Part shown: piece after piece, positions 1 through 25,624 of the stretch | How positions within the stretch are numbered: position 1 is the first letter of the stretch | How the letters are laid out: each line of letters opens with the position of its first letter | From: Welwitschia mirabilis | Lineage: Eukaryota | Assembly (NCBI GenBank): GCA_051453625.1 | Contig: JBOZIK010000001.1 | Coordinates: forward strand, 19,633,337 to 19,670,121 | DNA length: 36,785 nt | Direction of reading: 5' to 3' | Translations under genes and position numbers: made by a program | Notes under the pieces: generated by a model | What the model was told of the DNA's origin: nothing | Seen by the model: the letters and a program-made list of their open reading frames with translations, nothing else | The model's database searches: none

Positions 1-74
1 TTAAGCTAATTTATCATAATGCATACATTAATTTAATTTATTTAATCACAAAAATAGGTATTCAACTATTTTAG

Positions 75-388
75 TTTTTCTTTTTTGGAAAAAAGTATGT
101 GTATTAGACTAGGAAATGTACATCAAGGGGCAAAATCACCCAAGCGTATAGAAGCATAGAACCATTCATAATAGTGAGAATAATAGACTAAAAAGGGGGG
201 ACGAAACCACCGCTCAAAAAAATAACATAACAAGCAGTTGCATAAGAGGGTGCAAGTACTAATGAAAATAGTCATACAAAAGGATTAAAGACTACTAAAA
301 ATAGGGATAAAACTACTCCTAAAAACCAGAATTTATAAAGAACTTAGAATACTAGAAAAAAGCCAAAAAGTAAGAGGATATCAGTCCT
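75..388 (-). other. LINE 3'UTR and degenerate poly(A) tail
   Basis: T-rich tract on the minus strand after the TAG at 391-389, ending in AAAAAAGAAAAA (plus strand tttttctttttt, 75-86). Confidence 0.65.
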
Positions 389-454
389 CTACAGACCACT
401 GCAATAAGGGAACATGTTATGATGGTTGTGCTTAAGTAAGAATCTATCCAAGTC

Positions 455-612
455 ATTTAAGAACACCTCAAAAGCTTGATTGATTTGATTGAATTCTTTA
501 ACACTAGCTGGGTTCTTATCTGGATGAAGGATATATCTTTCTTCCTATAAGCTAATTTTATTATCTAGGGAAGAGCTTGATGAGAGAGACCCAGGGTGAT
601 GAATAGGCATCT
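455..612 (-). pseudogene. DnaJ J-domain remnant at the C-terminus of LINE ORF2
   Basis: Reads TLGLSHQALP*IIKLAYRKKDI(-1 nt)LHPDKNPASVKEFNQINQAFEVFL, with HPD at 526-518. Matches the J-domain pattern LG(L/V)..A....IK.AYRK.....HPDKN.....F..IN.A(Y/F)EVL with correct spacing once the single deleted base is restored. Confidence 0.85.
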
Positions 613-1084
613 TTTCAACCCATGCAAAGTTGCTAGAAGAACCTCTCTTCTAGTTGTATTCATGTCAATATCCTGAGTTTGGGGTTGGAGTTCCAAAGAA
701 GAGGATTTAGAGGTAGAGCTTTATGAGATACTAGGATCTAAAGCTTGAGGGGGAGAGTACTAGCATTCTTGAGCAGGGTCAGTTGGTAAGGAATGGCCTA
801 AAGCTAAAAAAGGATGAGGTGGAAACTAAGCTTAAGTTAGGCTAGGAGGATGCTCCTTGAGAGAAAGCTGTTGGACTGAGGACGAAGATGGACCTGCTGA
901 GTTAGCTGGGAATGAAGACACCCTCCTATTGTTAGCACTGGAAGGAGTTGTTATTTCTTCTAGGATAGGATTCCGAGCTGAGGAGGATCTTCTAAAAGAA
1001 TTTCTCCTAGGATTGTTTTGGTAAGGATAATGAGGGGAAGGATGAGAAGAGGCCTCTCTATTCTAAGCTTCTTAAGCTACTCTT

Positions 1085-1627
1085 CAAAGAGAAAGTACTA
1101 GGCATGAGTACCTAGAGGAGTCCTTTCACTTGAGGACTTGAATGAAGAAGTAGGGAATGTTTACTTGGCATCCTAAGTCAAGAGCCTTAACAAACATAAA
1201 ATGAATTCTAAAAAGCTTAGAACAATTATCAGATTGAATGAAATATTTATCCACAAGTTCTACCCCAAGTCCCCATAGGGGCGGTAAAACCTTCCTACTG
1301 ATATGCCCACTAGGTAGCTTAGGGATTCAACCTAGGAAAAAAAAGAACTTTTCATTAGCCTCTGCTTCTAAATGAGATCCTCTTGCCTTCTGCTGGGACC
1401 TTCAATAGTCTAGTAAAAGATTCTTCTGAAATTTCTATCGAGATTCTTCTAAAGGTTGTTCTTCCTCCTCTTCATCGCTTGTAAAATGGGGTAATATCGG
1501 CCACCATATCCCTTCTTAGTTTGTGTAGAATGGTTTCCCATCCCATATCCTATATTTTCTCCCACAACTTTGGGCACCCTTCAAAGAGGCCTAGGTCAGC
1601 AGGTTCATATGTTGGAGTGGCTTTCAT
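1085..1627 (-). pseudogene. Accessory domain in LINE ORF2 resembling the plant-retrotransposon extra-ORF family (Transposase_32/ATHILA-ORF1/PMD-like)
   Basis: MKATPTYEPADLGLFEGCPKLWEKI*DMGWETIL...ITPFYKR*RGG...IEISEESFTRLLKVPAEG..(frameshift)..GHISRKVLPPLW..VDKYF...HFMFV...VNIPYFFIQVL. In frame with the zf-RVT tail. Family assignment rests on recalled motif pattern only. Confidence 0.55.
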
Positions 1628-4600
1628 GATAAGTTTAATTTGAGAGTGATTGCGAATTATCTTTTTGGCTGTATAAATAGGGAAGGGAAGGGGGGCGTTA
1701 TTGAAAATTAAACTATTTTTTATCCTCCATATTTGCCATAAAGTCAAGTAAATCCCATCAAATGAATGCATGTCAGAGGCGCTACTACTTTGATAGTACT
1801 TAGTTATTAATACCATTAATTCCTTACTGCAGATGCATTAATGAAAGAGATGCTGAATTATTTCTATAGTGGACTAACATATGGAACATTTGATATCAAC
1901 TTGAATTTCCATTTTTAATAATTAGTCTCTTGTCAAGATTCAATCCTGCTCTTTCAGCCAGCAAAAAACTCTAATTTTCTCTAGTATTTGATCCCTCTAA
2001 TGCTTTTTATAGTCTTCCTATTTGCCATATTTCTTGATTAGGATTTGTTTGAACGTTTTATTCTGAGAAATGTTCAAATTAAAAAGTTGTTGGTTAGCTT
2101 TGAAGAGGTGCTTCTAAAGATAAGACACTCCATGTTTAATTGTCCAGTTTTTGTACTTATGATTCATTAAGTTACTTTAAGATTGCCCTCCATCTTGTAA
2201 TCTCTTTAAAATATTTTGAGCTACTATGAGAATACAAGCTTTAGGTTTTTATATTCTCCATCTTCTGATTCTTTAAGATGGGCTATGATTTTCCATTTAC
2301 ATAAATGTATTTTGTGGTGATCTTTTCCCCCAACCATATGAAGTCTTTTAAAATTCTATCACTTTTTTGAATGATATTCTTTGAGGGATGATAACAGAAG
2401 ATATATACCAAAAATATAAAATTAGATAGGAATTTGTAAGAATGATCTTAGCCTTTGAAGATAGAAAATTATTGTGCCAAAAACTACACCTCCTTTGTAT
2501 AGATTCTAGAATGTAGTTCCAAGTATTTGTCTTGTGCCAATTCCATAAAGAAATGCCTAGGTAGATGTCATGTAGGTATCCTAACTTTGCATTTAGAATA
2601 TGGGTGATTTCATCCCCTCTGATACATTATCTGCCTAAGCTATATATTCTTGATTTGTTTTAATTGATGTAAAGCCCTGTTGCCTCTGCAAATGTGTTCA
2701 TGGCATTTTTTATAGCTTTTGCTTATTAACTGGTTACCTTGGTTATGATAATAGTATCGTCTGCATAGTGGTTGTTGAGAAAAATTTGGCCTCTAATTTT
2801 GATTTCTATAATTCCATTATTTTTTAAGAAAATCTGTAAAACATTTATTACAAATAAGAAGAGGTATGGAGATAGAGGATCCCCTTGTCTTAAGCCTCTT
2901 CCTACTGAGAAGAAGTTTGATATGTGACTATTAACCTCCAAACTAAATTCAACTGAAGCCTAAATGTCTAGCTATAGGTTAATAATATCTTGAGAGAAGC
3001 TAATTTTTTTGAGAATGCACCCTAAATCTTGCCAACTAACTGAGTCATAAGCTTTTATAATATCTAGTTTAGCAATGAGAAGCAGAAATTGGTGCTTTTT
3101 AATGGAGTGAATAATTTCATGGGTCAAAAGGATTTGGTCTTGGATATACTTGGAATGGATGAAGATATCTTGGTTCTTTAAAATCACATTGGGGAATAAG
3201 GGGGCAATTCAACCAACCATAATTTTTGTGAAGATTTTGTAAATAACATTATAGACCCCTAAGGGTCTAAAGTTCTTTGGCCTACTGGCATCCCTTTTTT
3301 TGGTATGAGAACTACTCTAGTTCTTTTTATCTCTCTAGGAATCTATTATTTATGGAAAATTTCCTGCATTACATCATGGAGGTTATCTCCTAAGATAGAA
3401 AAATAAGTTTTGAAGAGCTTGATTAGCCACCCATCTGACCGATGTGCTTAGTTTTTCTTTATCAATCTGACTATAACTAGGATCTCCTCTCTACTTAAGG
3501 GTTTACTCAATACTTGATTATTCTCCTCCAAAACCTTCTTGTTCTCTGGAATTAAGTCAGGGGTGATATCGTCCCATTCCCAGACTTTCTGAAAATGGGT
3601 CTGTAGTTCCTTTGCTATTTCTTCTTCATTTTTTATAACTCGACCTCCTATTATAAGCCTGTTAATTCTATTATCTAATTTATGTTGGTTAGCCTGCTAG
3701 AAGAAAAATATAGTATGTCTATCACTTTCTTTAAGCCATTTGATCCTTGATCATTCTCTCTAATAATTTTCTTCATCCTCATGTATTTCTTGGAGCTCCA
3801 TTAGGCGCTGGTATTCTCTATTTCTAAGGATGTCCTGATTACCTCTCTTTTCCTATTCAGTTTGAATGTGTTTGAGGTCCTTAATTTTAGATTTTGAGTC
3901 AAACCACTCCTTATCTTTCTTTCTCAAGTATCTCATGTGAGCCTTCAAGGTATTGAGGCCTTTATATAAGAAAGTGACAGGTTGTTTACCATCATACTAT
4001 GCCTAGATATTTTCCAAGAGAATTTTAGTTTTTATTCAATTGATCTAGCATTGTTCCATCCAAAATGGGGTTTTTGGGGGTGAAAACACCCCCACTCTAA
4101 GCATAATAGGATGGTGATCTGAGGCAATCCTATTTAGACTATGATCTTTAAGAGGAAGTTTAGTTAGATGTTTCCTAGACATCACTTTATCAATCTTAGA
4201 CATTATTAGCTCTGTACTTATTCTTCTATTTAACCATGTGTATTTGCAACCATTGATTGGTATATCTGTGAGAGAATATCTTATAAAGAAATCTTTGAAA
4301 ATAGAGGCCACTTTAAAGTTTCAATTATCTCACCTAGATTTTTTCTAGTGATGGAGGCATTGATTAAAGTTGCCTAAAATTATCCATTTGAATTTATCCA
4401 CTACATTCTTTTGAGCTTCTTCCAAAACCATAGCCTTGTCTAAGTTATGTTGGCAACTATATATGTTTGTAATAATCCATCCTTCATTCTTAAGGAAAAT
4501 CATAATGTGATTCTAACTGCTAAAAATAAGATCTACATCCTTTTTAGTAGAAACCAAAAGACCACTAGATTTACCCTAGGCTAGTATAGTAAAAGAGGTC

Positions 4601-4785
4601 CAGTGCTATCCCATCTTTATGTTTCCCATATCTTGTTTTAGCTTCATCTCCTAAAGGCAGACTAAATCAATATTATATTAAGTAATTAGATTTTATAGGA
4701 TCTTTTTTTCATAAGAGGATCCTAATCCCATACAATTCTATGAGAGACAATTCATTAGAGGGTATTTTTGCCCCTTTCTAGGTGC

Positions 4786-6437
4786 TTATCCTTTTTTTAA
4801 TATGTCTTCAATTATAGCTTGGAAACTATTCGCAACATTCTCTGCTATCTCTCACCTCAATAAGGTTTTATTGCTAGGCCTTTCCTTTGTCTGAGTTTTT
4901 ACTTTATTAGATTCATCATCTTGAAGGTTTAGTTGGGTATCATTCTCATTCATGAGTGATTGAAATGGGTTTTTTTATTTTGAATCATTCCTTTTTCTTG
5001 ATTTTCTTTGGAAAAATGGTGGTACTTTTTCCAATTTATTCCTTTTGCTGTTTATGCCTACACACACTCTGATTATGCTCAGTCTTTTTGCAAAAGGTGC
5101 AAGTTTCCTTTTTCTTTCCTTTAATGTCTATCAATCTCTTTTGCCATTCTTCTCGTAGGTGATCCAATCTTTCATAGTGTGAGCATTTCTTCTTAGGAGA
5201 AGCACATCTTCCCCACAGGTATCCTAATTTTCCACAAGTTGAGCATGGGATCGAAAGATTCTCATATGTAACTTCTAGATCATAGGTTTTCCATTTGGAT
5301 CTAAACTTGATAGATTAGATTTTCTTTACATCTTTGAGACTCATCCACACACAAAATTTGGCTAACACTAGTCTAGTTTGTTTAATCGTGATTCAATCTA
5401 GCTTATTTAGATCTCCAAACTGATCAATCATTCTTCTTAATAGATCTTCATCCCAAAACTCCAAGGGTAACTTGTGGATGTGGATCTAGATTGGAAGTTT
5501 CTTAGACAATTGCAGGTCTGATTACACCCACAGTGTCCATTTGACTAGGGCTAGGCTTCTAACTCTAAAAAACCATGGTCCTCTTGCTATGATTTCATCC
5601 TGATCTTGTTCATTATCTAGCTAGAATAAAACTAGTCCTTCTAGGATTGTTATANNNNNNNNNNNNNNNNNNNNNNNNNNNNNNNNNNNNNNNNNNNNNN
5701 NNNNNNNNNNNNNNNNNNNNNNNNNNNNNNNNNNNNNNNNNNNNNNNNNNNNNNCTGACATTTTTCTCGTAGGTAACCCAATCTTCCACATTGTGAGCAT
5801 TTCTTCTCCGAAGGAGAACATCTTCCTGAGAGGTATCCTGATTTCTCAAAAGTTGAGCATGGGATTGAAAGATTCTCATATGTGACTTCTAAGTCATAGG
5901 TTCTCCATTTGGATCTAAACTTTATAGATTAGATTTCATTAGTGTCTTCGAGACTCATCCACACACAAAATCTAGCTAACACTAATTTGGTTTATTTAAT
6001 TATGATGCAATCCAGCTTGATTAGATCTCTAAACTAATTGGTCATTCTTCATAATAGATCTTCATCCCAAAACTTCAAGGGAAACTTTTAGATGTGGATC
6101 TAGATCGAAAGTTTCTTAAACAAATGTGGGTCTGATTGTATCCCCGGAGTCCATTTGGCTAGGGCTAGGCCTCTTACTATGATTTCATCCCGATATTGTC
6201 AATGTCTACCTAAAATAAAACCAGCCCTTTTAGCATTGCTATAACATTGACTTTGCTAATCCCTGTCCATTTTATTGTGACCCAATCATGGATCTAATCC
6301 AGTTGAGATCAAGAGCCAGAAGAGACAAGCTTGCTAATGAGGCTAAACTTAATTTTTTTCTCAATTTCATTGCACGCATCTTCATCTATGTCTAATATGA
6401 GAGATTTCCCCTCCCTAGAGAACTGAATCTTCTCCAT
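4786..6437 (-). pseudogene. LINE ORF1 (DUF4283-like with three CX2CX4HX4C knuckles), partly duplicated across a gap
   Basis: Starts at ATG 6437 (MEKIQFSREGKSLILDIDE...SLISKL), followed by GPWF, LPI*IHIHKLPLEFWDE and YENL. Knuckles lie at 5060-5245. The C-terminus is RPSNK..., with a probable stop TAA at 4788-4786. Confidence 0.85.
5141..6243. repeat. Diverged direct duplication of about 0.5 kb of ORF1 (5141-5654 and 5755-6243) flanking gap 5655-5754
   Basis: Collinear alignment with many substitutions; the right copy has an approximately 24-nt deletion that removes the GPW motif. Confidence 0.9.
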
Positions 6438-8512
6438 CTTGGGGCTAACCCCAATAGAAAACCCTAAAAAAACTGATCAAAATTGCAAAACAGAAGGACT
6501 CTTGAAACTTACCTAACTACTTCCTATTCTGTGGTTGAAAATGCCCCCTTGCACTATGATCAGGGACTAAAACCATTCCCACTGAACCGTGATCTCCAAA
6601 ACCTGCACCCTCCTCCTGATCTGCGATCTTCAGAGCTTTACCCTAGGTGGAATCTTGGATATACTAAATAATTCATTTTTTATTATTATGTTAATAGAGT
6701 TTGATTTTTTTTCTTTTAACTGACTTATGAACATCTTTTAAGACATTCATTTTATGCTACTTGATTTAATCTTATCTTTGAATTTATTTCCATTCATTCA
6801 TTTATAGCTTATCACTTTCTTGTTAATGATACATGTCTTCTTGATAAAGTATGATGAAATTTTAGTAATTTTTATAGGACTTATAACTTAATATAATACA
6901 TGTACAGGAACTTTAGATGTTTCTTGGTAGATGATTGAATCATCATGAGGATTCTTAAATTTCAATTATTTTAATACTTTTTCTCAATCCTTAATGATGA
7001 TGAAATAAATGTAATCACTTCCAATGATATTATGCTAGAGTGAGGATGAAGCTAAGAGATTTCAAAGAAAATAAAATTATTTTATATTCATATTTTGATC
7101 ATTCTATGATAACTATAACCCTTACTGATGAATTAAATCACTTGAAGTTATCCCATTGATAATCTAGCACTATTTCTACTAATGATTCTAATGATTGTGA
7201 ACCTAAAGAATGAGATTTATATACATCCAAAAAACATTTGAGTATTTGTATTAATGCTTTATAAATTTGATACCTTAGTAGAGTTATAAAAGATTATTTA
7301 TCTTAGCTAGTATTATTTTCAATAACATGTTGATCTTTTGATAGTGTTAAAATTAATGTATTTTATGTTAAAAACTATTAATTCCTTAACTAATCAAGTG
7401 ATTTAAACCTCATCAGGTACTTGTCAATCTCTTAATGCTTTCTAGGCTTACTTTATTTCATCACTTTTATTTTTATCTTTGGGAGGATTGTTAAACCCTT
7501 ATTAATTTGATATTAATCTTCGAAAACATTTAAAACACATAGTAAGTACAAGAGTGAGATGCTTGTCCTAAGGCTAAAAAATGTAATGGCACTTAATAAA
7601 TAAATAAATAATAAAAAAAGAGTCCTATGAATAGAAAAATCATTATTATAACTAAAGATATTATTTTTTAAAGTAACAAAACAACTTTAGGCATCCTTTT
7701 ATTGCATTGTCCTCAAGCGGTATAAAATCATTCTGATAGTTTATATTATGTAATGGCTAACATGCATGTCTAAGTAAAAATATATGATGTGGAATAATCA
7801 AATTCTAAAGAGGAATTTATGAAATTAAGCAAGAAAAATTTAAGTAAGAGAGTAGCTAGAGGAGATAATTAGCCTTCAATTAAATTTTTGTTATTTGAGT
7901 GTGAATCTAGAAAGTAATACTCTACAAAATAGTAGCATATTAAATCTAGAAAAGTAAAATTACTAATTGTTTGAAAAAGTATGATTAGATTGGTATTTTT
8001 ATATTGCATGAAAGATGTAGGGTTTAAAACACTTTAAAGGAATAAATGTTATCTTAGAAGATTTGATAGATAGTAAGCATAATATGCTTCTAGTTTAGAT
8101 GAAATCCTTAAAATGGTATACAAACCTATGCTATAATTTTTTTAAGACATAAAAAAATCAGTGAGGAAATGCTAGAAACTATCTTAATNNNNNNNNNNNN
8201 NNNNNNNNNNNNNNNNNNNNNNNNNNNNNNNNNNNNNNNNNNNNNNNNNNNNNNNNNNNNNNNNNNNNNNNNNNNNNNNNNNNNNNNNNNNNNNGAAATA
8301 GTTTTTAGATGATTTATGTTTTGGACATTACTTATGATATAAATTAATGGTATGCCATAATATATTACAATATTTCTTAATGCATACATCTTCTAAAGAA
8401 TTTGGTAATTTTTATTTTTTTAATAATTGTAATGATAATAATAACTATCTTCTTTTCATTATATTGTGTTGAACATGAACTACATTAGAGATATAGAAAA
8501 TAAAGCATATAA

Positions 8513-8533
8513 ATTATTATTATTATTATTATT
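8513..8533. repeat. (ATT)n microsatellite
   Basis: About 7 ATT units. Confidence 0.8.
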
Positions 8534-9630: not shown

Positions 9631-11299
9631 CCTAGTCACATGAAATAATAAATTAAATTTTGAATTCACTTATAACTTTAAATAATAAAAGCTCGATAAG
9701 AGAAATAATAGGCGTGAGTAGTAGATAAAATAATTTTACATACTAAATATTCCATAATCATTATACTCTTTTTATATTCCTATTTATCCATTTTGAAAGA
9801 TAATTTACTAACAACGATCTCATAGATTCTTAGAAATATCTTAAAAAGAAAAGAAAATTCTAAGAAATTTAGTTACACCATCATCTAAAATAATTTTCCA
9901 TGATGCAGAGAGAAATCATGTATAATTTTGGTAAGATTAAATACTAAATACTTTTCCAAATTAATATTTGAACTAAAAAGAAAATAATAAAGAGTAATAC
10001 TATAGAGAAATTGATTAAGTATATATTGAGGATTTTTATTTATCTATTTATTTATTTATTTTTTAATTTGCAGTCATCCAGAACATTCATCTTGATAAGC
10101 ATCTTTAGATTTTCACTAATGTGAATACCAAAAATAGTCCAAGATCAATTACCATAATGATAAATACTTGAATAGACTAAACATGAAGTCCTAAGTTCAA
10201 ATATCTACATTGGTAGGGGCATATAATTTGCATGGCTCCATGTGCCACTAGGAAGTTATATGACACATACCTACCTAGCTAGGTTACCCTCTAAAAATAT
10301 ATGAATATCATAAATAATATTATCCTAATCATCCTTTCACATAACATGACATAAAAATCTACTACAATGATAAAAAGATATGAAGCTAAATGACATTCTT
10401 TCCTTACAGACCTTTTAATATGAAAGGTAAAAATAAAATTTTGGGTGATGGAAATATAAGCATTTTATTCTTCAAATTTAAAAATCTATCATATGAATGA
10501 AATCCTTTCAAAATCCTAGCTTTTTAATGAAAACTAAGATAAAATTCCATAAGAATATATTACAATCTACTATAGAATTAGGTTTATAGAAGGTAATATC
10601 TTAATTAGTATTTATTTCTCATACTAAATATTTCTAAGTAGAAATAACATTGTTAAAATTATACTTATGTTTAATAAAACCACTTTTTTAAATACACATA
10701 ATACAAGGTAGGATAATCTCCAACATATAACCTAAATGTTTAGATAAAATTTTATAAGAAACATTAATTAAAGTAATTAATCTCTTATTGGAAATAGAAT
10801 TTAGATCATCTAATTTTTATGAAACATGGATAGTATCCTAATTTAGCTTTATAACCAAGATACCTTTATGTGAGGCTTCCTTAAGAACCCTAAGATAGTC
10901 TTTTCCACTAATATCATAATGGTTTTTATAAAATTATATGAAAAAATTCATTCATCTTTAAAGCCTTACAATTATCCATTTCAAAGAGCTCTTCTTTTAC
11001 CTCATCTTTATAATAACGTTCTCTAAAATTTAATGATAGACCTCTAAAATTTTAAAGAAATGATGTTAGAATTTTGGTTAAAGAGATCCTAACATAAATT
11101 ATCTAATTAAAAATTTATTAAGATTTTTAACCAAGTATTGGATAATGAATTATGGATCAAAGTATACACTACCATTAATTTAAGTTTATCTAATTGATAA
11201 GAATAAAAATTCTCTTAAGAAACTTAAAAAATTATTTATAATTGATGTTTTAAATGTTAAGCTAAGAAAAATTTTCTCTTAATACTAGTGCTTTTAATA

Positions 11300-15875: not shown

Positions 15876-16779
15876 CAAATGGTAATATAGAGAAAGATCA
15901 TTTTATTAGAGCTAGAAAATCATTACATCAAATGAGAGTGCATGAAATATGAAACAAAAAGTGCAAAATAGTACAAACCACTTCTAAATATAAATGGAAG
16001 GAGAATACAAACTAAAGTAAAAGAGATATGCTAATTGATGAAGCATCTATGGGAGATGATCCATTCAAGCTTCTTATTAAGTTCATTCTAATTTTTAGAT
16101 ATGGCATTTTACTTCTTAGAAATATTTTTCATCTTGTTCGAAAGCTCTCTTATCCATGTTTTTAAGATCATGGCACATGCTTTGTTTCACGTAAGGTGGA
16201 AAAGAATGTTAAGGAAGACAGGTAGAAGGAGGAGAAGAATGAGAGGAGAAGTAGGTACATAATATGATTTTATAATAGGATCCTTATCCTTTTTCCAAGT
16301 AATAGGAGAAGAATAAGNNNNNNNNNNNNNNNNNNNNNNNNNNNNNNNNNNNNNNNNNNNNNNNNNNNNNNNNNNNNNNNNNNNNNNNNNNNNNNNNNNN
16401 NNNNNNNNNNNNNNNNNAAGTAATAGGAGAAGAATAAGAAAAAGAAGGGGATTTATAATGAAGTTAAGAATGTGCTTCTTGTTATTTTGCTTAAGGTTTC
16501 ACTTAATTGTTATATAGGTTCTATCCCAATTATCAAATTCAAGGGTTTTAGATAAGGCATTGTAAAGGAAAAAAAACATGAGACACAAGAGAGGTAAGCT
16601 ACTTTTATGACTTACATGATTGAGTATAGTTTTAGAAATGCATTTGGGCATGTTAAAAGGTTTGCTCTCTTGGATAATACTAATCATGTTCAAATCACTA
16701 CTATATGCATCCATTACATGAGAGGTAAGCAAAATATTATGATGGACAAATCTAAAGAGGGCTGATTGGTATTTGTAAA

Positions 16780-18100
16780 AATATTTATAAAGTAAAACAC
16801 CTTTTGTATTAGAATAATATTCAACATTTAAGACTCCATAATAATAATTAAGGATTTATTAAGAAAAAATGTAACTTATCATTATGGGTTACTCCAAAAA
16901 TACTTTTTAAATTCCTTAACATAACAAAAAAAGAAGTGCTACAAATAGAAGAATGAATTAATCAAGGATCCTTCTCATCTAAAGTTTCATTTCTATAGAA
17001 TTTAAGTACCTTCTTGTAAAAATAATAAGTTCTTTCTTCCTTTAAAAGGTAATGCTAATGATAAGACTCAATTTTTACCACATAATAGGGTGCATAAAGA
17101 GAAAGAAAAGAGTAGAAAATGGCATCTTCAATGAAGGATTACTATATTCCAATCATGATATCTTACAATTACAACAATGAAGAATAGGAAATTAGAAATA
17201 CTATAATAGAAGAGAAATAGATGAGGAAGATATAATTAGTAATAAAAAATCAAAGCAAAAGGTCAGTAAACATGAAAGTTAATTTTTATAAGCAAACTTT
17301 TCTTACCAATAAGCCAAAACGATGGATGGTAGAAATTAAAAGAGGTGTATGATATGACAATGGTTGACAATGCTAGTGGACTTAGGCAGTGGTGCAAGTT
17401 CTCTTGTATGGATAGATACCAGCTCATAAAAATGGGAAATGTTAGTTGCAGAGATCACAAAAAAACTAATGATGAAGTGTGTTGGATACTTTAAAATTGG
17501 GTTTATATATAAACATTATGAAACATTAATCATTAGATCTTTGGGTTTCATTGACTATGGATATTAGTTCAGCTTGGATTGAGTCTTGAATAAAGAGGTC
17601 ATATCATAAGAAACACAAGTATGCTTTCTCATAAAGGAAAATATGAGGTTTTATAACATGGAATGTAAATAAAAAATGGTAAATGTAGTAAATAATAACG
17701 AGAATGATGAAATCATGCATCTTGTGAATAAAAAAGATTAATGAAATCTATATAATTACTTATTTTTTATATTATTACTTAATTTGATGGATCTATTGCT
17801 AAAATAAAGTAGTGTATTCATAAGTTAATTTAAAATGTTTAAGAATAGTAAAAAGAATTTCAAGTTTTAATTTGTTATAGAAAGCATGATAAAAGATATC
17901 CCAAATCCCACACTAATTTCATTTGTTTTTATTATAATTTTATGAATGACTACTCTAAGAATTTGATCATATTGATCATTTAGTATTTTGGAACTTTCTT
18001 CTAATAGATTTAACATGTTATTCATGATAACTTCAGTGCTTCATTACCAACAAGCATCTATAGCTTTGATATAGTTGAATGTGTTATAACTAAATCATTA
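16780..18100 (+). mobile_element. Very decayed Ty1/Copia pol remnant (tentative)
   Basis: Faint motif shadows in Copia order: I.H..TP near 16815, K...IF..Y near 17100-17145, W..(A)M near 17325, G..D...A near 17545. Confidence 0.3.
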
Positions 18101-18539
18101 GAGTTGTATTTCTAGTACGTGTCTATATCCCTAATGTAGGGAAATAAATCTAAAAATAATGATTTAAAAATAAAGTGATTAAAATTTAAAAAAAATTGTA
18201 AGAATTATTTTACAAGCATAAGAGTATCATTGTTTCATTAGCCTAATAGATAAATAATCTCAATCATTTGAAATTCTTAAAGTAAAGTGATAACCTAAAA
18301 GTAAAAGAACCACATTTTTCCTTAGGATTTTCCATATTGAAGAGCTCAAATGACTACAAACATTAATAAAGAACTTGAAAATAAAGATAACTTTCTCTTA
18401 AAGAGTAAGAAATTATAGGATCTCCACTAAAACTTTAAAAATACAATGATTAATTTATTATTAAATTTTTGAAAGAGACCATTAACAAGGAGTATTGAGT
18501 CTAATGAGCTCATAATAGAATGGAAGAGGTGGATGACAT

Positions 18540-21100
18540 GGTTTTAGGTAATGAAGCAATGAACATTAATTTTTAATTGGTGATAATTTTTTTTTTAATT
18601 TTCTATGTGGAAGACTCCATTTGGTAGCACTTATTTTATCATGTATGGCTCTCACCATTAAAAAATTAAATTTTTAAGAAATAAGTGTAATATTTTATTA
18701 TATAATAAAAAGAAATCTCCTTCCTAAAAGGTTTTCCTAAGGGTGTATTAATCATGGAACTTTTTCATTTTCTCTTTGTTGATTATCATATTTTCACATG
18801 CATTATTTTCAAGCTTATGTAATTCATTAACTTGAATTGTTATCTACTTTGCTATCAGATTAAGGTTTAGATTCATGTGTTTGATGGCCTAATAAACCTT
18901 TTGTTCAAATTTTATAAGAAGATAATAAGCTTTACCATAAACTAGCCTAAAGTTAACATTCCTAGTAAGGTTTTATATGTAGTTTTATAAGCCCACAAAA
19001 TGTCATTCAGCTTGTAATATCAATCTCTTCTAGTTGAACTTTCTAATTTTTGTAAAATGTTCTTGATTTTCTTATTTTTAACCTTAACTTATCCACTAGT
19101 TTGGAAATGCTAACGAGTGGTAACTTTGTGAGTAATCCCTTATTTAGCAGGAATCTTGTTGAAGATCACATTGTAAAAATGAAATACATCATTACTAATT
19201 AGGACTTTTAGAAAATCAAATCTAGCTAAAATATGCCTCTTAAATAATTTTGCTATTATTTAGGAATTATCAGTATTACATACACAAGATTCTACTCATT
19301 TGATGACATAGTTATCAGAAACTACAATGTATTGGTATTTATTGAAAGGAGGATAAGAACGTTAGAAATAAAATTCTTATACATTAAATGATTCAATGAT
19401 AAGAATGAAATTAGTAGCATCATATGTCTACTAATAGGAATTCCAAGTTTCTCATAATTCTCACAAGATTAACAATAAATATAAGAATCTTTAAAAAAGA
19501 ATGGATACTAGAGTCCACATTGAAAAATTGTGGTGGAAATTTTGCTAGTAAAACAATGACCACCACAAGCCTTAGAATGACAAAGCTTAAGACTGTCATC
19601 AATTGCACATTGTAAAATACATTATTAAATGGTTTGATTAGGACAATATTGAAAAGATAAGGATCATCCTAGAAGAAGTACTTGACTTAGGAATTTATTG
19701 CTATCATTACAAGTCTAATGCCAAAGGATACATTTGAAGACTAATTAATTAGCAATGTAGCATATTATGTAGTTTATGAGATGAAAAACATATGTTCACT
19801 AGTGAAAGAGTCATTAATAGGATCTAAATCATATAAAATGTTTTAAGGGGTAATCCTTGAAAGATGGTAAAAAACTACATTGTCAAAATCCTTTTTGTTT
19901 TTTATTTCCAAATTAAAATTCTTACAAGAGTAGAACCCATCTAATCAACCTAAACTTAGAAAATTTATTAGAAAAAGTATATCTAAGGGCTGAATAATTG
20001 GTGTGAACTATAACCTTAAAACCAAAAATATATTGGCTAAATTTCTATAAATTCAAAATTACTTAAATAAGNNNNNNNNNNTATAGTTAAGTTAGTTTTT
20101 ATTTAATGTTTAACCAATATAATAAATCAGAATAGGTTTTTTCTCAACTCTTTAATCTAATATTACACCCATGAAACAATCACTAGTAGTACATATGATT
20201 TCAATAAGCAGTTTATAATCATGTGATTAAATGATTAGTGTTGTACTAAGCTTTTCTTAAAGCCTATTAAAGGCTCATTAAGAATTGGATGTTCAATTGA
20301 AAGAAGCAATTTTACTAAGGTTACAAAGAGGTTTGGAGATTTTGATAAAGTTGTGAATGAACCTACTATAGTATCTTGCAAGNNNNNNNNNNNNNNNNNN
20401 NNNNNNNNNNNNNNNNNNNNNNNNNNNNNNNNNNNNNNNNNNNNNNNNNNNNNNNNNNNNNNNNNNNNNNNNNNNNNNNNNNAATAAGTTTCCTTTTAGT
20501 GATAATATAGTAAAGTTAGTTTTTATTTAATGTTTAACCAGAGTTTTTATTTAATGTTTAAGCAGTATAATAAATCAGTATAGGTTTTTTCTCAACTCTT
20601 TGATCTAATATTACATCCATGAAACAATCACTAGCAGTACACATGATTTCAATAGCAGTCTATAATCATGTGATTAAATGATTGATGTTGTACTAAGATT
20701 TTCTTAAAGCCTATCAAAGGCTCATTAAGAATTGGATGTCCAATTGAAAGAAGCGATTTTACTAAGGTTATAAAGAGGTTTGGAGATTTTGATAAAGTTG
20801 TGAATGAACCTACTATAGTATCTTGCAAGTTCAAGAAAAGGTTAAATGTCTTTTAATTTTTAAGAAATAGGAAAATGGATAACCAGTGAGACTTTAATAG
20901 GATCCATTCGAAAATATTCTTAAGAAATGATATGTCCTAAAATTATTTCTTTGTTAATCATGATATGGAATTACTTCCAATTTAGAATAAGGCACCTTTT
21001 AATGCATCTCAATAGAACAATTTCAAGGTTATAAAGACAACGATTGAAAGATGTCTCATAAATGGAAAAATCATTCATAAAGATCTATTTACATTTCTTG
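18540..21100 (-). mobile_element. Ty3/Gypsy (Athila-like) pol remnant: C-terminal RT, RNase H, integrase
   Basis: RT: IFMNDFSIYETSFNRCLYNLEIVLLRC (about 21000-21085). RNase H: VHTNYSAL...FNLEIKNKK. Integrase zinc finger: CHSKACGGH..FQCGL*YPFFFKD. Integrase core: ILARF..VLISN..GITHKVTT..HFQTSG..LNDILWAY. C-terminus: LLYN..LHLF..W.(G)PY. The RT-RH-IN order is Gypsy. Confidence 0.88.
20082..20829. repeat. Diverged direct duplication of about 300 bp (20082-20382 and 20506-20829) flanking gap 20383-20482
   Basis: About 14 differences over about 260 aligned nt by hand count, mostly transitions; the right copy has an extra internal repeat of about 22 nt. Confidence 0.9.
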
Positions 21101-21104
21101 TCCT

Positions 21105-21816
21105 CCTTGGTATCGATAATTTATTCTTCCTTTACTTCTTTTATTTATTCCTCCTCTAGCATGCTTATTTCTAGCTAATAATGCATTATCATTTGAGCTA
21201 TCACATATTTTCAAGTCCTTCAATGTCTTCAATTGAGCAACTAACTCATACATAGCTTAGATATTGAGATCTATGATTTGATGAATGATGATCATGCATT
21301 ACCTATATCTATGGTTATTATAGAATACTTGAATCAACTTATCAATCTTTTGCCTCACACTCAATCCATAAAAATATTCAAAATTTAGTAAAGTTGCATA
21401 CATTCTATCAAGAAAATAATTAAGTGATTTACCTCTTTCAATATGAAGATCATCAAATTCCTTTCTATAATGCATTTATTTTTTTTTTTCTATTTTGAAC
21501 TATGCCTTTGAATTCTAATTGAAGTTGATCCCAACACTCCTTTGAAGTTCCTTGGATAATGACTCTTACTCCAATCACTTCTAATACTGAATTGCATATT
21601 ATCATTTTTAATAATGCATTTGACTTTGGTTGAAGTCATATTTCCTCTTCTGTTCTCTATTCAGTAATTTAAATTTGGAGGAGAGAAAAATCCATTTTCT
21701 ACCACATTCCAACATTCATTAATTTTTAATAAGGACTTCATCAAGTGTAAATAATATAAAAAAAATCTTAAGATCCATTAAAAATTATAGAGCATTGGAG
21801 AATTTCCTTAGCCATG
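21105..21816 (-). mobile_element. Ty1/Copia-type gag remnant
   Basis: Starts at ATG 21816 (MAKEI..IFNGS), then KECWDQLQLEFKG...RKEFDDLHIERGKSLNYFLDRM and IIDLNI*AMYELVAQLK, matching the Copia gag pattern AKE.WD.L..EF.G / R.EFE.L.M..GESI..YF.R / DL..L..EL...L. Confidence 0.65.
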
Positions 21817-22230: not shown

Positions 22231-23712
22231 AAGTTCTGTGGAAATAGTATTCAAATAGTTCGCAAAATAGTTTCTAATGTGGAAATTTGATAAATAATTC
22301 TTCTATCAATTCATGTAGATGATTGTAAACACTTCAAAGATGCATTTAAGTACTAAAAATCATCATTCTTTTGAGATCTTTTAACAATTGAGGAATATTT
22401 CTCTCTCTTTAATAAAATTTCACAATAATTCTTCAAATGTAAAAATCCTTTCCTTGAAGCTTTAAAGATTGTTAATCTCTAATCAAGTTCCTCAAATATA
22501 ACTCAAATTATGTCCTATTCATTGAAAAAGCTTCCAGTGCATTATCTTTTATAAAAATGAGTGTATTTGATGATCAAAGAAATCTAAAATTGAAGAATGA
22601 ATCATGATCAAGCTTACAACCTTAAAGATATTGAAGAATCTATAGTGAAGTAAGCATGAGTCTCTTAATCAAAATTGAGGCACAAGTGAAGCAACAAAAA
22701 ATTGAGTCTTCGATCCAATAGTATTTCATTCATCTTTTCCAAGAGGTATCAGTCCTTTTTTCACCCATGCATGTACAACCTTTTATAATTGGAGTGGATA
22801 GCATTCCATTCCACCTAATCAATGTGGGATGACTCTCTTTGCTTTTTCTTAAAACATGTTTTCCTATAACCTATGTTGGCATTATACAAGAATAAAACCT
22901 ATTTAACTAATTGAAACAAAGGCACACATTAATCAAAACAACAAATACAAAGCAATGATGGTCACATTAGACCACATATTATGACATTTAACTCAAAAAT
23001 TTCTATTAACTCTAGAGAGAACTAAGGATTTCTATTGAGTTTAACCATAATTCTTAACATGTAAGTCATGAAAATCATCATGCCCTTCACAAATAGTGGT
23101 ATACAAAGATCTTGTGATTATGAAAAATGTCTAATGGTTCTTGAATTAAGAAATAAATTAAGATAATAAATTTGACATGATCACATCTTCATTATCAAGA
23201 TGACATTATATAGTTTCCATCGACCATTACCTAACATTATAAAATATGCAACTTATTAGTCTTTAATGTTAGTTATCTACCATCTTGCGCTTCAAGGATA
23301 ATATTTTGCTTCTCATTCTTTTCTTCTTCCATGTGTTTTGTTTTCTCAATGGAATGAATACATTAAACATGATGCAACTCCCAAGATATAACACATTAGT
23401 GACCCACCAACACTCTAATATTAAACATGCATTTTATTCTCCTTTGAAATGTTTGACTTGAAAACACTAGTTCTTTCCTCTTTTAATGTAGTAATCTAAG
23501 TAATCTTGTTTGTTTGATTTTTGGGCTAATACCCAAGTTGTACAACTTTAAACACTAAATAATGAAGTCCTTTTAAATATTCTAAAAGTGATTATGAGCA
23601 AGATCATCGGTCATAATTAAAGACAACGTATTTCTCACAGCACAAAGAAACACATTCATTTGTTTTAGAGACTTCTTTGACTCCAATTTGTTGTGATGAC
23701 CAAGACATATTC

Positions 23713-23760
23713 TCAGTAGACTGGAAGTGGCCCCCCTGCCAACAAAATGTTGTGCTCCAT
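23713..23760 (-). CDS. AHP: AHP exon 6
   Basis: atgcag|ATG; MEHNILLAGGPLPVY then TGA; matches the LEQQI.AAGG.IP-type AHP C-terminus. Confidence 0.9.
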   Translation of the reverse strand: MEHNILLAGGPLPVY

Positions 23761-24824
23761 CTGCATGCATTAATAAACACAGAAAAACCTGCAAATCAAT
23801 AGATACCAAATGAAACCCACAAATATGAAAAAGAAAACATCTAATCCATCTAACATGAAGCAACTCTTGCAGTTTGCTCTTCAACACGAAGTACTCATTC
23901 TTCAGCTGTTGCAGACACTCCAGGCAACTGTTCACATGCAGATGAACAAGCCACTGCTTTTAATTATTTGGTTCAGCGATTGCAGAAGGAAATAGGACAT
24001 AAACGTTATACTGCAATTGCAGTAAACGAAAAATAGAATTTTGAGATGACACGCAAGTACCCAGAACGGTTTCTGTGATCACAGAAGATCCGGAAAGCAA
24101 TGCAGACGTTCTTTACTCTCTGGGCTCCTATGCTGTTCGATTCATTTATTCTCGTTAGTTGCTCTTCAAAGTAAAAAAACAGCCACCCAGAAGCTTATTC
24201 ATTCTTATTAATAGTCTAAACAAGCTACCAAACATGACTATTTTAAACGATGTATGGAACTGAAACTGGTACTGAGTTTACAGTATGAAGCTGGAGTGAA
24301 AGACTTTTGAGGATATATTGCGCAGAAGAAATGACACTGAAGAAGAATGTACACCTGGAACTGCTTCCTGTAAACTGATGGAGATGCACGTCCATCCTCT
24401 TGTAATCCACATCTTCTTTGTCTCTGAACATAATCACCACAAGCACAGACGTAATTTGCAAGAATTGAATTAGATACAGAAAGGAAAACAGTCTAGAGAG
24501 GCATCAGACATACAGAAGAGTGGCCATGTTGCAGAGAAGTTTCTCAGAATCACGAAAGAAAAGGGATAAAACTTCCAAAATGAAATCAGGATCTGAATCA
24601 TCTCGCAGTTGCTGAAGCTGATTAAAATGGTCGTCAAGAAATCCCTGCAACACCATACCCAGAGACCCAATAAGCAGTAACCCACCAAGAATTCAACCAT
24701 GACTCATGCACCAAAACCAGTTCAAGAAAAAGAAAAGCAAATTGCAGACCTGCTGGAAAAGAGAGCTAATGAATTGGAGAAGCCGCTTCTGCAACGTTAG
24801 GACTTCTCCGCTGCAGCACATCAT
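23713..24824 (-). CDS. AHP: Histidine-containing phosphotransfer protein (HPt/AHP family), 6 exons, 155 aa
   Basis: join(24824-24750, 24644-24514, 24423-24355, 24132-24061, 23927-23855, 23760-23713) = 468 nt, all introns GT-AG. Protein: MMCCSGEVLTLQKRLLQFISSLFQQGFLDDHFNQLQQLRDDSDPDFILEVLSLFFRDSEKLLCNMATLLDKEDVDYKRMDVHLHQFTGSSSSIGAQRVKNVCIAFRIFCDHRNRSGCLECLQQLKNEYFVLKSKLQELLHMEHNILLAGGPLPVY. Internal exons of 131/69/72/73 nt fit the plant AHP gene structure. Confidence 0.96.
23855..23927 (-). CDS. AHP: AHP exon 5
   Basis: aacag|T; CLECLQQLKNEYFVLKSKLQELLH; donor CAT|gttaga. Confidence 0.95.
24061..24132 (-). CDS. AHP: AHP exon 4
   Basis: aacag|C; IGAQRVKNVCIAFRIFCDHRNRS; donor GG|gtactt. Confidence 0.96.
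24355..24423 (-). CDS. AHP: AHP exon 3 (phospho-His motif)
   Basis: ttcag|A; DKEDVDYKRMDVHLHQFTGSSS; donor AG|gtgtac. Confidence 0.96.
24514..24644 (-). CDS. AHP: AHP exon 2
   Basis: ttgcag|GGA; GFLDDHFNQLQQL...SEKLL; donor CT|gtatgt. Confidence 0.96.
24750..24824 (-). CDS. AHP: AHP exon 1
   Basis: gccATGATG start; MMCCSG...SLFQQ; donor CAG|gtctgc. Confidence 0.9.
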
Positions 24825-24927
24825 GGCTTCTCTCAAAATTCAGACAAAATACTTGTTGATATTACCAGAAATGCTAAATTGGGCTCAAGCCTTGAAAATT
24901 TCAGGTAAAGGAGGATCCACTGCCCGC

Positions 24928-24935
24928 TCTTTATA
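24928..24935 (-). promoter_or_regulatory. Candidate TATA box of the AHP gene
   Basis: TATAAAGA in a GC-richer context, about 105 nt upstream of the ATG. Confidence 0.45.
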
Positions 24936-25064
24936 CCCATCCATCTCTCTTAAAATAAAGGAATTACACCAAATATAACATGTTGCAGAGACTGTTGTAT
25001 ATTTTACGGAAACTTTCAGAGGCATGCAAGACACTAAAGGCTTAAGTCTTAGAACCCATATAAT

Positions 25065-25165
25065 AAAACCCTAGAAAATCCTTTAAATAACAGACCTAAA
25101 AAACTTCAGGCAACAAAACCCTAGAAAAGCTTTTGAAAGAGAAACGCTAAAAAATTTGAGGCAAC
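25065..25165. repeat. Tandem duplication of about 50 bp, each copy starting with telo-box-like AAACCCTAG, upstream of AHP
   Basis: aaaaccctagaaaa...ctaaaaaa..aggcaac at 25065-25114 and 25115-25165. Confidence 0.75.
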
Positions 25166-25624
25166 AGATGATCAGAGGCCTCTCAGGGCATGCGAATTTC
25201 AGAAATCGAGAGAGTTGCAGGAAGAGATGAGAGCAGTCAGACAAACATCTCATCTGCCCACAAAATGTTTCTCTCTCATAACATAATCATCACTCTTCCA
25301 GACCTGTTACTACCCTTTTTTAAATAAATTTCTTGATTCTTACTAATCTATTATGATACCATGAAATTATACACCATGAAATTGATAATACTGAAACTAT
25401 TTAAACAAGAAAAAGAAAGTGAAATGCTAAATTTCATGGCGTTGTTTATGATAGAAGTATGATGTGGTCATGAATGGTATAGGAGCTTCCCATCTGTGAT
25501 GTCAATGTGTTGTCACCAATTCTTGGCTTTCCTTTGGAAAATGTGGGTAAGTTTAAGGTAACTATCATTATGTCTTCTAATTGGGTACTCATATTATGTG
25601 TAGTTGAGTAACATTGACCACCTC

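Follow-up and report, generated by a model that had tools for sequence, protein, structure and literature searches.

A J-domain relic beyond the usual end of ORF2 in a high-copy L1-type LINE family of Welwitschia mirabilis

Can a LINE, an element thought to depend on host chaperones supplied in trans, carry a J-domain of its own, and if so, to which reading frame does the domain belong? The question is raised by a 36,785-nt stretch of Welwitschia mirabilis DNA (contig JBOZIK010000001.1, positions 19,633,337 to 19,670,121; hereafter, the window), which is AT-rich (28.5% GC) and contains seven runs of N. The initial annotation of this locus had proposed that the ORF2 of an L1 element near the start of the window ends in an Hsp70-recruiting J-domain. 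We found that the J-domain is real, that it lies inside the element, and that the module of which it forms a part is common to many copies of the family, in the same order.

The element and its boundaries

Judging from its domains, the region from 57 to ~6243 on the minus strand is a decayed plant L1-type LINE, a dead copy (Table 1). Its reverse transcriptase (RT) matched plant L1 proteins at E-values down to 8.8e-27, with 31-45% identity among the matches listed; since the nearest of these relatives are only 45% identical, the lineage is poorly sampled. RVT_1 was recovered on two pieces (E 6.2e-6 and 9.8e-6), each below the Pfam cut-off, and zf-RVT (PF13966) scored above its cut-off of 27.5 bits, the L1-type order of RT followed by zf-RVT being present. 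The endonuclease (EEP) domain matched PF03372 weakly (E 0.067, 13.4 bits) over profile positions 22-225, that is, nearly the whole profile, and tblastn matches of L1 proteins also fall over 4000-4700. In the ORF1 relic, DUF4283 (PF14111) was recognized at E 2.7e-12 (46.9 bits), and the CCHC knuckle weakly as zf-CCHC_4 (E 0.036, 14.2 bits versus a cut-off of 27).

The ORF1 block that comprises the C-terminal half of DUF4283 and the CCHC knuckle occurs in tandem (5142-5654 and 5756-6243), flanking a 100-N gap, and this tandem reflects either a genuine duplication within the element or the joining of two copies during assembly. The search for a target-site duplication and the 5' flank yielded nothing convincing, only short AT-rich repeats, and a loose-end consensus for the 5' flank matched the window no better than shuffles of the consensus. 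Neither blastn nor tblastx revealed further copies of the element within the window.

Positions 1-4200 were compared with Logan contigs from three public DNA runs (X1, X5 and X7, carrying two organism labels) at a likeness of at least 80%, and with one oligo-dT RNA run in the same manner. At position 56, loose ends were counted in 11, 14 and 5 contigs of the three DNA runs; these contigs match the window up to 56 and are unlike it from 57 onward, and therefore 1-56 belong to another repeat and the element ends at ~57. The J-domain is located ~330 nt inside this end, in agreement with the earlier placement of the segment inside the element, ahead of a T-rich 3' UTR and an A-tail: the repeat boundary (56/57) is downstream of all three. 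Positions 1-56, the AT-rich flank, are part of a different high-copy repeat, and the bin 1-140 had a summed depth of 5651 in X1.

Table 1. Features of the element in the window, their basis and, where available, the summed contig depth of the corresponding bin in run X1 (summed depth does not equal copy number, and the RT bins may draw in other L1 families)
Feature	Position	Strand	Basis	Summed depth in X1 (bin)
Element 3' end, A-rich tail (AAAAAAGAAAAACTAAAATAG...)	57-90	minus	sequence read; contigs diverge from window at 56/57	
T-rich 3' UTR, without open frame	91-388	minus	a diverged contig spans 147-422	658-1077 (141-420)
TAG stop closing the J-domain frame	389-391	minus	translation	
J-domain relic and short tail of ~15 residues	392-612	minus	Pfam, PDB, tblastn, local profile	1649-2297 (421-700)
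Ser/Pro-rich low-complexity linker, frame 0, 9 stops	613-1128	minus	translation	307-541, lowest of the element (701-1120)
Domain X, family not assigned	1129-1546	minus	frame 2 over 1546-1358 from the ATG, then frame 0 over 1326-1129	6091, peak (1121-1260, C-terminal part)
TAG where canonical L1 ORF2 is expected to end, in frame with the downstream ATG	1550-1552	minus	L1 alignment, translation	
ORF2 C-terminal region, zf-RVT at 1969-1820	1553-1999	minus	PF13966, E 2.7e-8, 34.8 bits	1872-3111 (1401-1820, ORF2 tail)
Reverse transcriptase core, RQGDPLSPYLF ... YADD	2738-3193	minus	RVT_1, plant L1 matches	2044-8516 (2381-3780, RT bins)
Putative decayed endonuclease (EEP) domain	4114-4698	minus	weak PF03372 match and L1 tblastn	
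ORF1 relic: DUF4283, then CCHC knuckle	5036-5605	minus	PF14111, zf-CCHC_4	
Second copy of the ORF1 block, across a run of N	5756-6243	minus	80-84% identical to 5142-5654	

Elsewhere in the window, a second, more decayed LINE RT fragment was located at 10487-10933 (minus strand; tblastn with plant L1 proteins, E down to 4.5e-11), the read-through of which matched no Pfam family. The interval 22500-25500 is a GC-richer island (0.32-0.38 versus ~0.25 in its surroundings) with several ORFs of 77-125 residues, three of which were scanned and showed no Pfam match at E<0.01.

Sequence and identity of the J-domain relic

A complete J-domain relic (LGLS...AYRK...HPDKNP...AFEVF) is present on the minus strand at 612-437. 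Its frame is not intact in the window copy, being broken by an in-frame TAG (567-565) and by the loss of one base at 531/532: helices I-II are read in frame 0 (612-532), and the HPD loop with helices III-IV in frame 2 (529-437). The frame 0 translation runs through CLFITLGLSHQALP, a stop and IIKLAYRKKDI down to base 532, and frame 2 gives LHPDKNPASVKEFNQINQAFEVFLNDLDRFLLKHNHHNMFPYCSGL from 529 to the TAG at 391-389; the initial annotation had both the translation of 612-455 and the position of this TAG exactly. The HPD tripeptide (526-518, frame 2) aligns with the HPD of J-domains in the PDB and in the local profile described below.

The second half of the relic (HPDKNPASVKEFNQINQAFEVF...) matched Pfam DnaJ (PF00226) at E 1.2-1.8e-4 (22.0-22.5 bits), covering profile positions 28-56 of 63 (E 1.5e-4, 22.3 bits), and with 455-529 as the query at E 1.2e-4 (22.5 bits); the curated cut-off of 27.8 bits was not reached, the query being half a domain only and the curated model being run within one frame. 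Among PDB sequences, 13 distinct entries were retrieved with this half at E<=1, 9 of them named DnaJ, HSP40 or SIS1, and the best matches were class-A J-domains, namely, dnj-12 (2och, E 2.3e-4) followed by DNAJA1. Furthermore, tblastn against plasmids placed 26 of the 30 matches listed under annotated J- or DnaJ-domain genes, although each match was weak (E 0.1-9). The first half alone matched nothing in the Pfam and PDB searches.

A local profile was built on the N-terminal 78 residues of 10 J proteins from plasmids and compared with a read-through query in which the letter X was placed at the TAG and at the break. The query scored 36.7 bits in one ungapped alignment (profile positions 10-62, LGLS...LDRFL), compared with 26.1 bits for the second half and 1.0 for the first half when taken separately. 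Helices I-II (LG... and the basic AYRK) are found at the canonical spacing before the HPD, and the first half adds ~10.6 bits, a gain that is the sole independent test here, the 10 profile proteins having been selected for resembling the second half. Shuffling the 30 residues ahead of the break gave 0 of 2000 sequences that reached the real score of 38.0 (mean 26.5, sd 1.4, max 36.7). The DnaJ identity claimed in the initial annotation is thus recovered by a frameshift-aware comparison, with the half-domain Pfam match remaining below its cut-off.

The relic retains the HPD, the basic helix II and, in helix III, the AFEVF. In a motif control, the window contained one HPD accompanied by Y[RK][KR], LG[LVI] and A[YF]E[VIL][LF] at J-domain spacing, and 0 of 150 shuffled windows had an HPD with at least two companion motifs, the motifs having been chosen after the sequence had been seen.

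Could a J-domain-like pattern have arisen by chance in AT-rich decayed sequence? The half-domain score below the curated cut-off and the lack of any match to the first half alone are what chance would give, as is the result that the second half (51 residues) had 0 matches at E<=0.001 among 1.84 billion representative proteins. However, this reading is opposed by the PDB matches, the motif control, the plasmid tblastn and the frameshift-aware profile, and also by other copies of the family, which are closer to a typical J-domain at positions 605 and 488 and carry an extra base exactly at the predicted break (see below). We consider chance resemblance exceedingly improbable; from the combined comparisons, it is nearly excluded, and the J-domain is real.

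Other searches with the second half were less informative with regard to its relatives. Comparison with longer proteins returned 1 candidate, with none scored, and peptide patterns run against metagenomes gave 211 pattern matches and no relative. A degenerate DNA pattern for HPDKNPAS(V) had two matches in metagenomes, which were rejected as chance matches on apparently bacterial contigs of 63% GC. In the ESM Atlas, the best match was an unnamed cluster (0.90), with a DnaJ cluster at rank 4 (0.86).

The module between ORF2 and the 3' UTR

To which reading frame the J-domain belongs depends on where ORF2 ends. In tblastn with 120 plant L1 proteins, homology stopped at ~1600-1700, and a profile of 14 L1 C-termini (zf-RVT and RNase H) matched 1999-1616 only (35.9 bits); its RNase H part had no match in any frame, and no Pfam match was obtained on 532-1552. 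In L1 relatives that lack RNase H, the protein runs on for 17-50 residues after the aligned part, and therefore the ORF2 stop is expected at ~1646-1544; the window has a TAG at 1552-1550. Three bases past this TAG, there is an in-frame ATG (1546-1544) in good context, with G at -3 and +4.

A module of ~1.16 kb, sense-oriented and without introns, separates the canonical end of ORF2 from the 3' UTR; in it, domain X is followed by the Ser/Pro-rich linker and the C-terminal J-domain (Table 1). Going by these boundaries, the J-domain is the C-terminus of a distinct module beyond ORF2. The GC content of the module is 40%, compared with 33-35% for the LINE, a difference that points to a foreign origin. 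The best reading path follows frame 2 to ~1343, frame 0 to 532 and frame 2 to 392, with ~13 internal stops in 387 codons versus 22.6 +/- 4.3 per frame in shuffles, and the other two frames over the module contain 28-29 stops; the module of the window copy thus has at least 13 stops and 2 frame changes. The initial annotation had assigned the J segment and some 750 nt of ORF2 ahead of it to one frame. This was only loosely right: frame 0 extends over 1341-532 with 10 stops, and this stretch is not canonical ORF2. Likewise, an L1 LINE with a J-domain was correctly perceived, whereas the claim that ORF2 itself ends in the J-domain is not demonstrated: given the end of homology at ~1616, the TAG and the ATG, a third ORF ("ORF3") is as likely as an extension of ORF2.

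The identity of domain X is less clear than that of the J-domain. Three read-throughs of X matched no Pfam family at E<=10, including PF20167 and PF03078; X together with the linker had no match in PDB and Pfam, and a protein search with a piece of X returned no relative. A single-sequence AlphaFold2 fold of a 66-residue piece was all-strand and of low confidence (mean pLDDT 64). In the ESM Atlas, the nearest cluster was PF20167, Transposase_32 (score 0.90, 15 of 30 matches), with a recognition value of 2246 that is below the tool's mark of 2300, so that the resemblance of X to Transposase_32 may serve as a lead only. Transposase_32 and Athila ORF1-like proteins are often followed by Ser/Pro-rich tails, and we know of no J-domain in this family. 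Although its cluster is the nearest to X in the Atlas, the Pfam model of the family does not match X. One paper relates Transposase_32 to Athila ORF1 (PMC11728184). A separate Transposase_32-like ORF is present in the window at 16502-16855 (minus strand, open, 118 residues), matching PF20167 at E 2.7e-6 with 27.8 bits, below the cut-off of 45, and X has no BLASTP likeness to it.

Copies of the family and the origin of the module

Positions 1-4200 are high-copy, each DNA run contributing 18,224-21,561 contigs. Depth runs without interruption over 1401-1820; its peaks fall on domain X and the J-domain, and the linker and the UTR are covered less deeply (Table 1), as would be expected were both domains constrained. 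The low depth of the linker and a loose end at 722 indicate that the linker varies among copies.

Among the matches listed, contigs ~15% diverged from the window bridge the junction of ORF2 and X (1338-1644, 1420-1693, 1385-1622, 1412-1678 and 1442-1694), several of them spanning both 1552 and 1616, and other diverged contigs fall on X, the linker, the J-domain and the UTR (1168-1449, 943-1223, 612-972, 479-722, 489-722 and 147-422); all of these are among the 24 pieces listed out of ~59,560. The contigs are short (~220-460 nt), and no single copy was followed from the RT to the A-tail. The J segment is not a one-off: it is common to many diverged copies, in the same order after the ORF2 tail, which upholds its initial description as a family feature.

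The shared order could in principle have arisen through nesting, if the tail of a LINE and an X-linker-J unit had been joined once and the composite copied without LINE retrotransposition, for instance, by segmental duplication or by carriage inside a larger element. The shortness of the contigs, with no copy linking RT to A-tail, is compatible with such a composite, and so are the nearest Atlas cluster of X, a family tied to Athila LTR elements, and the separate Transposase_32-like ORF at 16502-16855. Nevertheless, we regard this possibility as improbable: the depth is continuous from the ORF2 tail into the module (1401-1820), both 1552 and 1616 are spanned by several diverged contigs, the module is followed closely by an A-rich tail and, at 57, by a repeat boundary, the module shares orientation and frame with ORF2, and X shows no BLASTP likeness to the ORF at 16502-16855.

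The copies also bear on the breaks in the J-domain. At position 605, the letter of at least 76, 77 and 77 contigs places Pro-Phe ahead of ITLGL; at 488, the reading in 44-63 contigs is EFKQI, which DNAJA1 shares; and at 552, 35-52 contigs give Thr for the Ala of AYRK (TYRK), which is not closer to the consensus. Three of the four well-supported differences (605, 488 and the base at the break) are closer to the J-domain consensus. An extra base behind 531 was found in 7, 1 and 2 contigs of X1, X5 and X7, respectively, and behind 532 in 2, 0 and 1; with this base, the two halves of the J-domain join in one frame. The extra base accounts for a minority of the spanning depth (6 of 68.9 in X5 and 7.5 of 76.2 in X7), and the site of the break is covered much more thinly than its bin is on average. 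Behind 1342, two contigs of X1 and one of X5 have two additional bases, by which frame 2 would continue into frame 0; support is thin, and the true frameshift of this region could lie anywhere in ~1395-1340. No intact copy of the J module was seen among the contigs of the three DNA runs. Just past X, at 1075-1110, 36 X1 contigs have a variant that appears to be a short in-frame length difference, with a loose end at 1105.

Oligo-dT RNA reads covered 421-700 at ~3x, and 117 of the 118 RNA reads on 1-4200 are less than 90% alike to the window and therefore come from other copies. Over the RT motif RQGDPLSPYLF, 51-58 oligo-dT reads match only ~42 bases at 2858-2900; they differ from the window at six fixed sites and continue into uniform, unrelated sequence to either side. 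By this pattern, they are to be attributed to an abundant transcript from elsewhere that shares the RT motif.

How, then, did the module come to be carried by so many copies? We put it at somewhat better than even that a high-copy plant LINE family of the L1 clade acquired the module, that the module was probably translated, and that the J-domain would recruit host Hsp70. Under this proposal, a coding module of ~1.16 kb, with domain X, the Ser/Pro-rich linker and a C-terminal class-A-like J-domain, would have been captured in a single event from a transcript that was intronless or processed. As long as the family was active, it would probably have been translated, either as an ORF3 beginning three bases past the ORF2 stop or, by read-through, as an extension of ORF2; the J-domain would have drawn host Hsp70 to the protein or RNP of the element itself, with domain X as the putative client-holding part. 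We infer translation during the active phase of the family, and recruitment of Hsp70 is suggested by the conserved HPD and the residues of helices II and III.

Chief among the alternatives is passive carriage within the 3' UTR, in which a master L1 would have taken up the 3' part of a host J-protein or transposon transcript, by 3' transduction or template switching, and would have carried it untranslated, so that the J-domain would at no time have served the LINE. L1-type elements can accommodate new 3' ends, and the GC difference between module and LINE, the TAG that precedes the module at the normal end of ORF2, and the lack of such a module in all 120 plant L1s listed fit this account. The intact-looking consensus weighs against giving the copies much force here, because a consensus of copies would look intact even for a passive passenger. 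Passive carriage accounts less readily for the tidy join, in which the stop is followed after three bases by a same-frame ATG in good context, for the capture of 1.16 kb in sense orientation and without introns, and for the depth maxima on the two putative domains, with lower values in the linker and the UTR. The join, the shared frame and the depth peaks favour function only mildly, and we consider passive carriage possible but rather unlikely, leaning towards an acquired module that was translated.

Known systems and implications

PF00226 was found in none of the best 120 of 280 plant L1 relatives (E<=0.001), and a limited full-text search of the retrotransposon literature returned no LINE or other retrotransposon with a J-domain. 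In keeping with this, the initial annotation knew of no described plant L1 of such architecture, and we found none among the 120 relatives listed or in that limited search. In an opinion paper on retrotransposon accessory domains, DnaJ, chaperone and Hsp70 do not occur (PMC6338049).

The closest precedents are plant L1s with an added RNase H domain and insect LINEs with an added helicase. RNase H (PF13456) is present in many of the plant L1 matches listed. Plant L1s reportedly gained this domain after zf-RVT, the same place, C-terminal to zf-RVT, at which the element described here has its extra domain, and by a comparable modular gain; however, this element shows no RNase H match, and what was added is non-enzymatic, consisting of X, the linker and a co-chaperone domain. 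Plant L1-clade LINEs have an ORF1 with DUF4283 and zf-CCHC and an ORF2 with EEP, RT and zf-RVT (PMC5203782). The element resembles them in its ORF1 (DUF4283 and CCHC), its ORF2 (RT and zf-RVT, with a putative EEP domain), its A-rich tail and the 31-45% identity of its RT, and differs in having ~410 further codons past the usual ORF2 end, closing in the J-domain. In insects, R1/TRAS and Jockey LINEs have an added C-terminal SF1 helicase domain (PMC4686597, PMC5563155, PMC6338049). There too, ORF2 ends in an accessory domain that was captured and kept through amplification, but the helicase is of viral origin and its fusion to ORF2 is documented, whereas the J-domain here would be either fused or part of an ORF3.

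With regard to the domain itself, the parallel lies among viruses. Polyomavirus T antigens have their own N-terminal J-domain with an HPD, which engages host Hsp70, and its function has been demonstrated. In both cases a selfish element encodes an HPD J-domain, but the polyomavirus is a DNA virus with the domain at the N-terminus, whereas here the carrier is a retrotransposon, the domain is C-terminal, and its engagement of Hsp70 is putative.

A further-reaching proposal is that a lineage of plant L1s makes a J-domain co-chaperone of its own, encoded by a third ORF or by an extension of ORF2, which was kept by selection and would use host HSP70 for RNP maturation or for countering host control; we consider this doubtful at present. 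Host control is of interest here because the plant J-domain protein SILENZIO, together with HSP70s and MBD5/6, silences methylated transposons (PMC8616336). If the proposal is true, a transposon-borne J-domain could compete for or misdirect the SILENZIO/HSP70/MBD5/6 machinery. The family would then provide, within our limited literature search, the first retrotransposon counterpart to the J-domains of polyomavirus T antigens, and a non-enzymatic co-chaperone would be added to the few accessory domains that non-LTR elements have captured. Because the family is present at high copy under at least two organism labels, intact copies may exist; the module would offer a handle on RNP assembly or silencing evasion in plant L1 elements.
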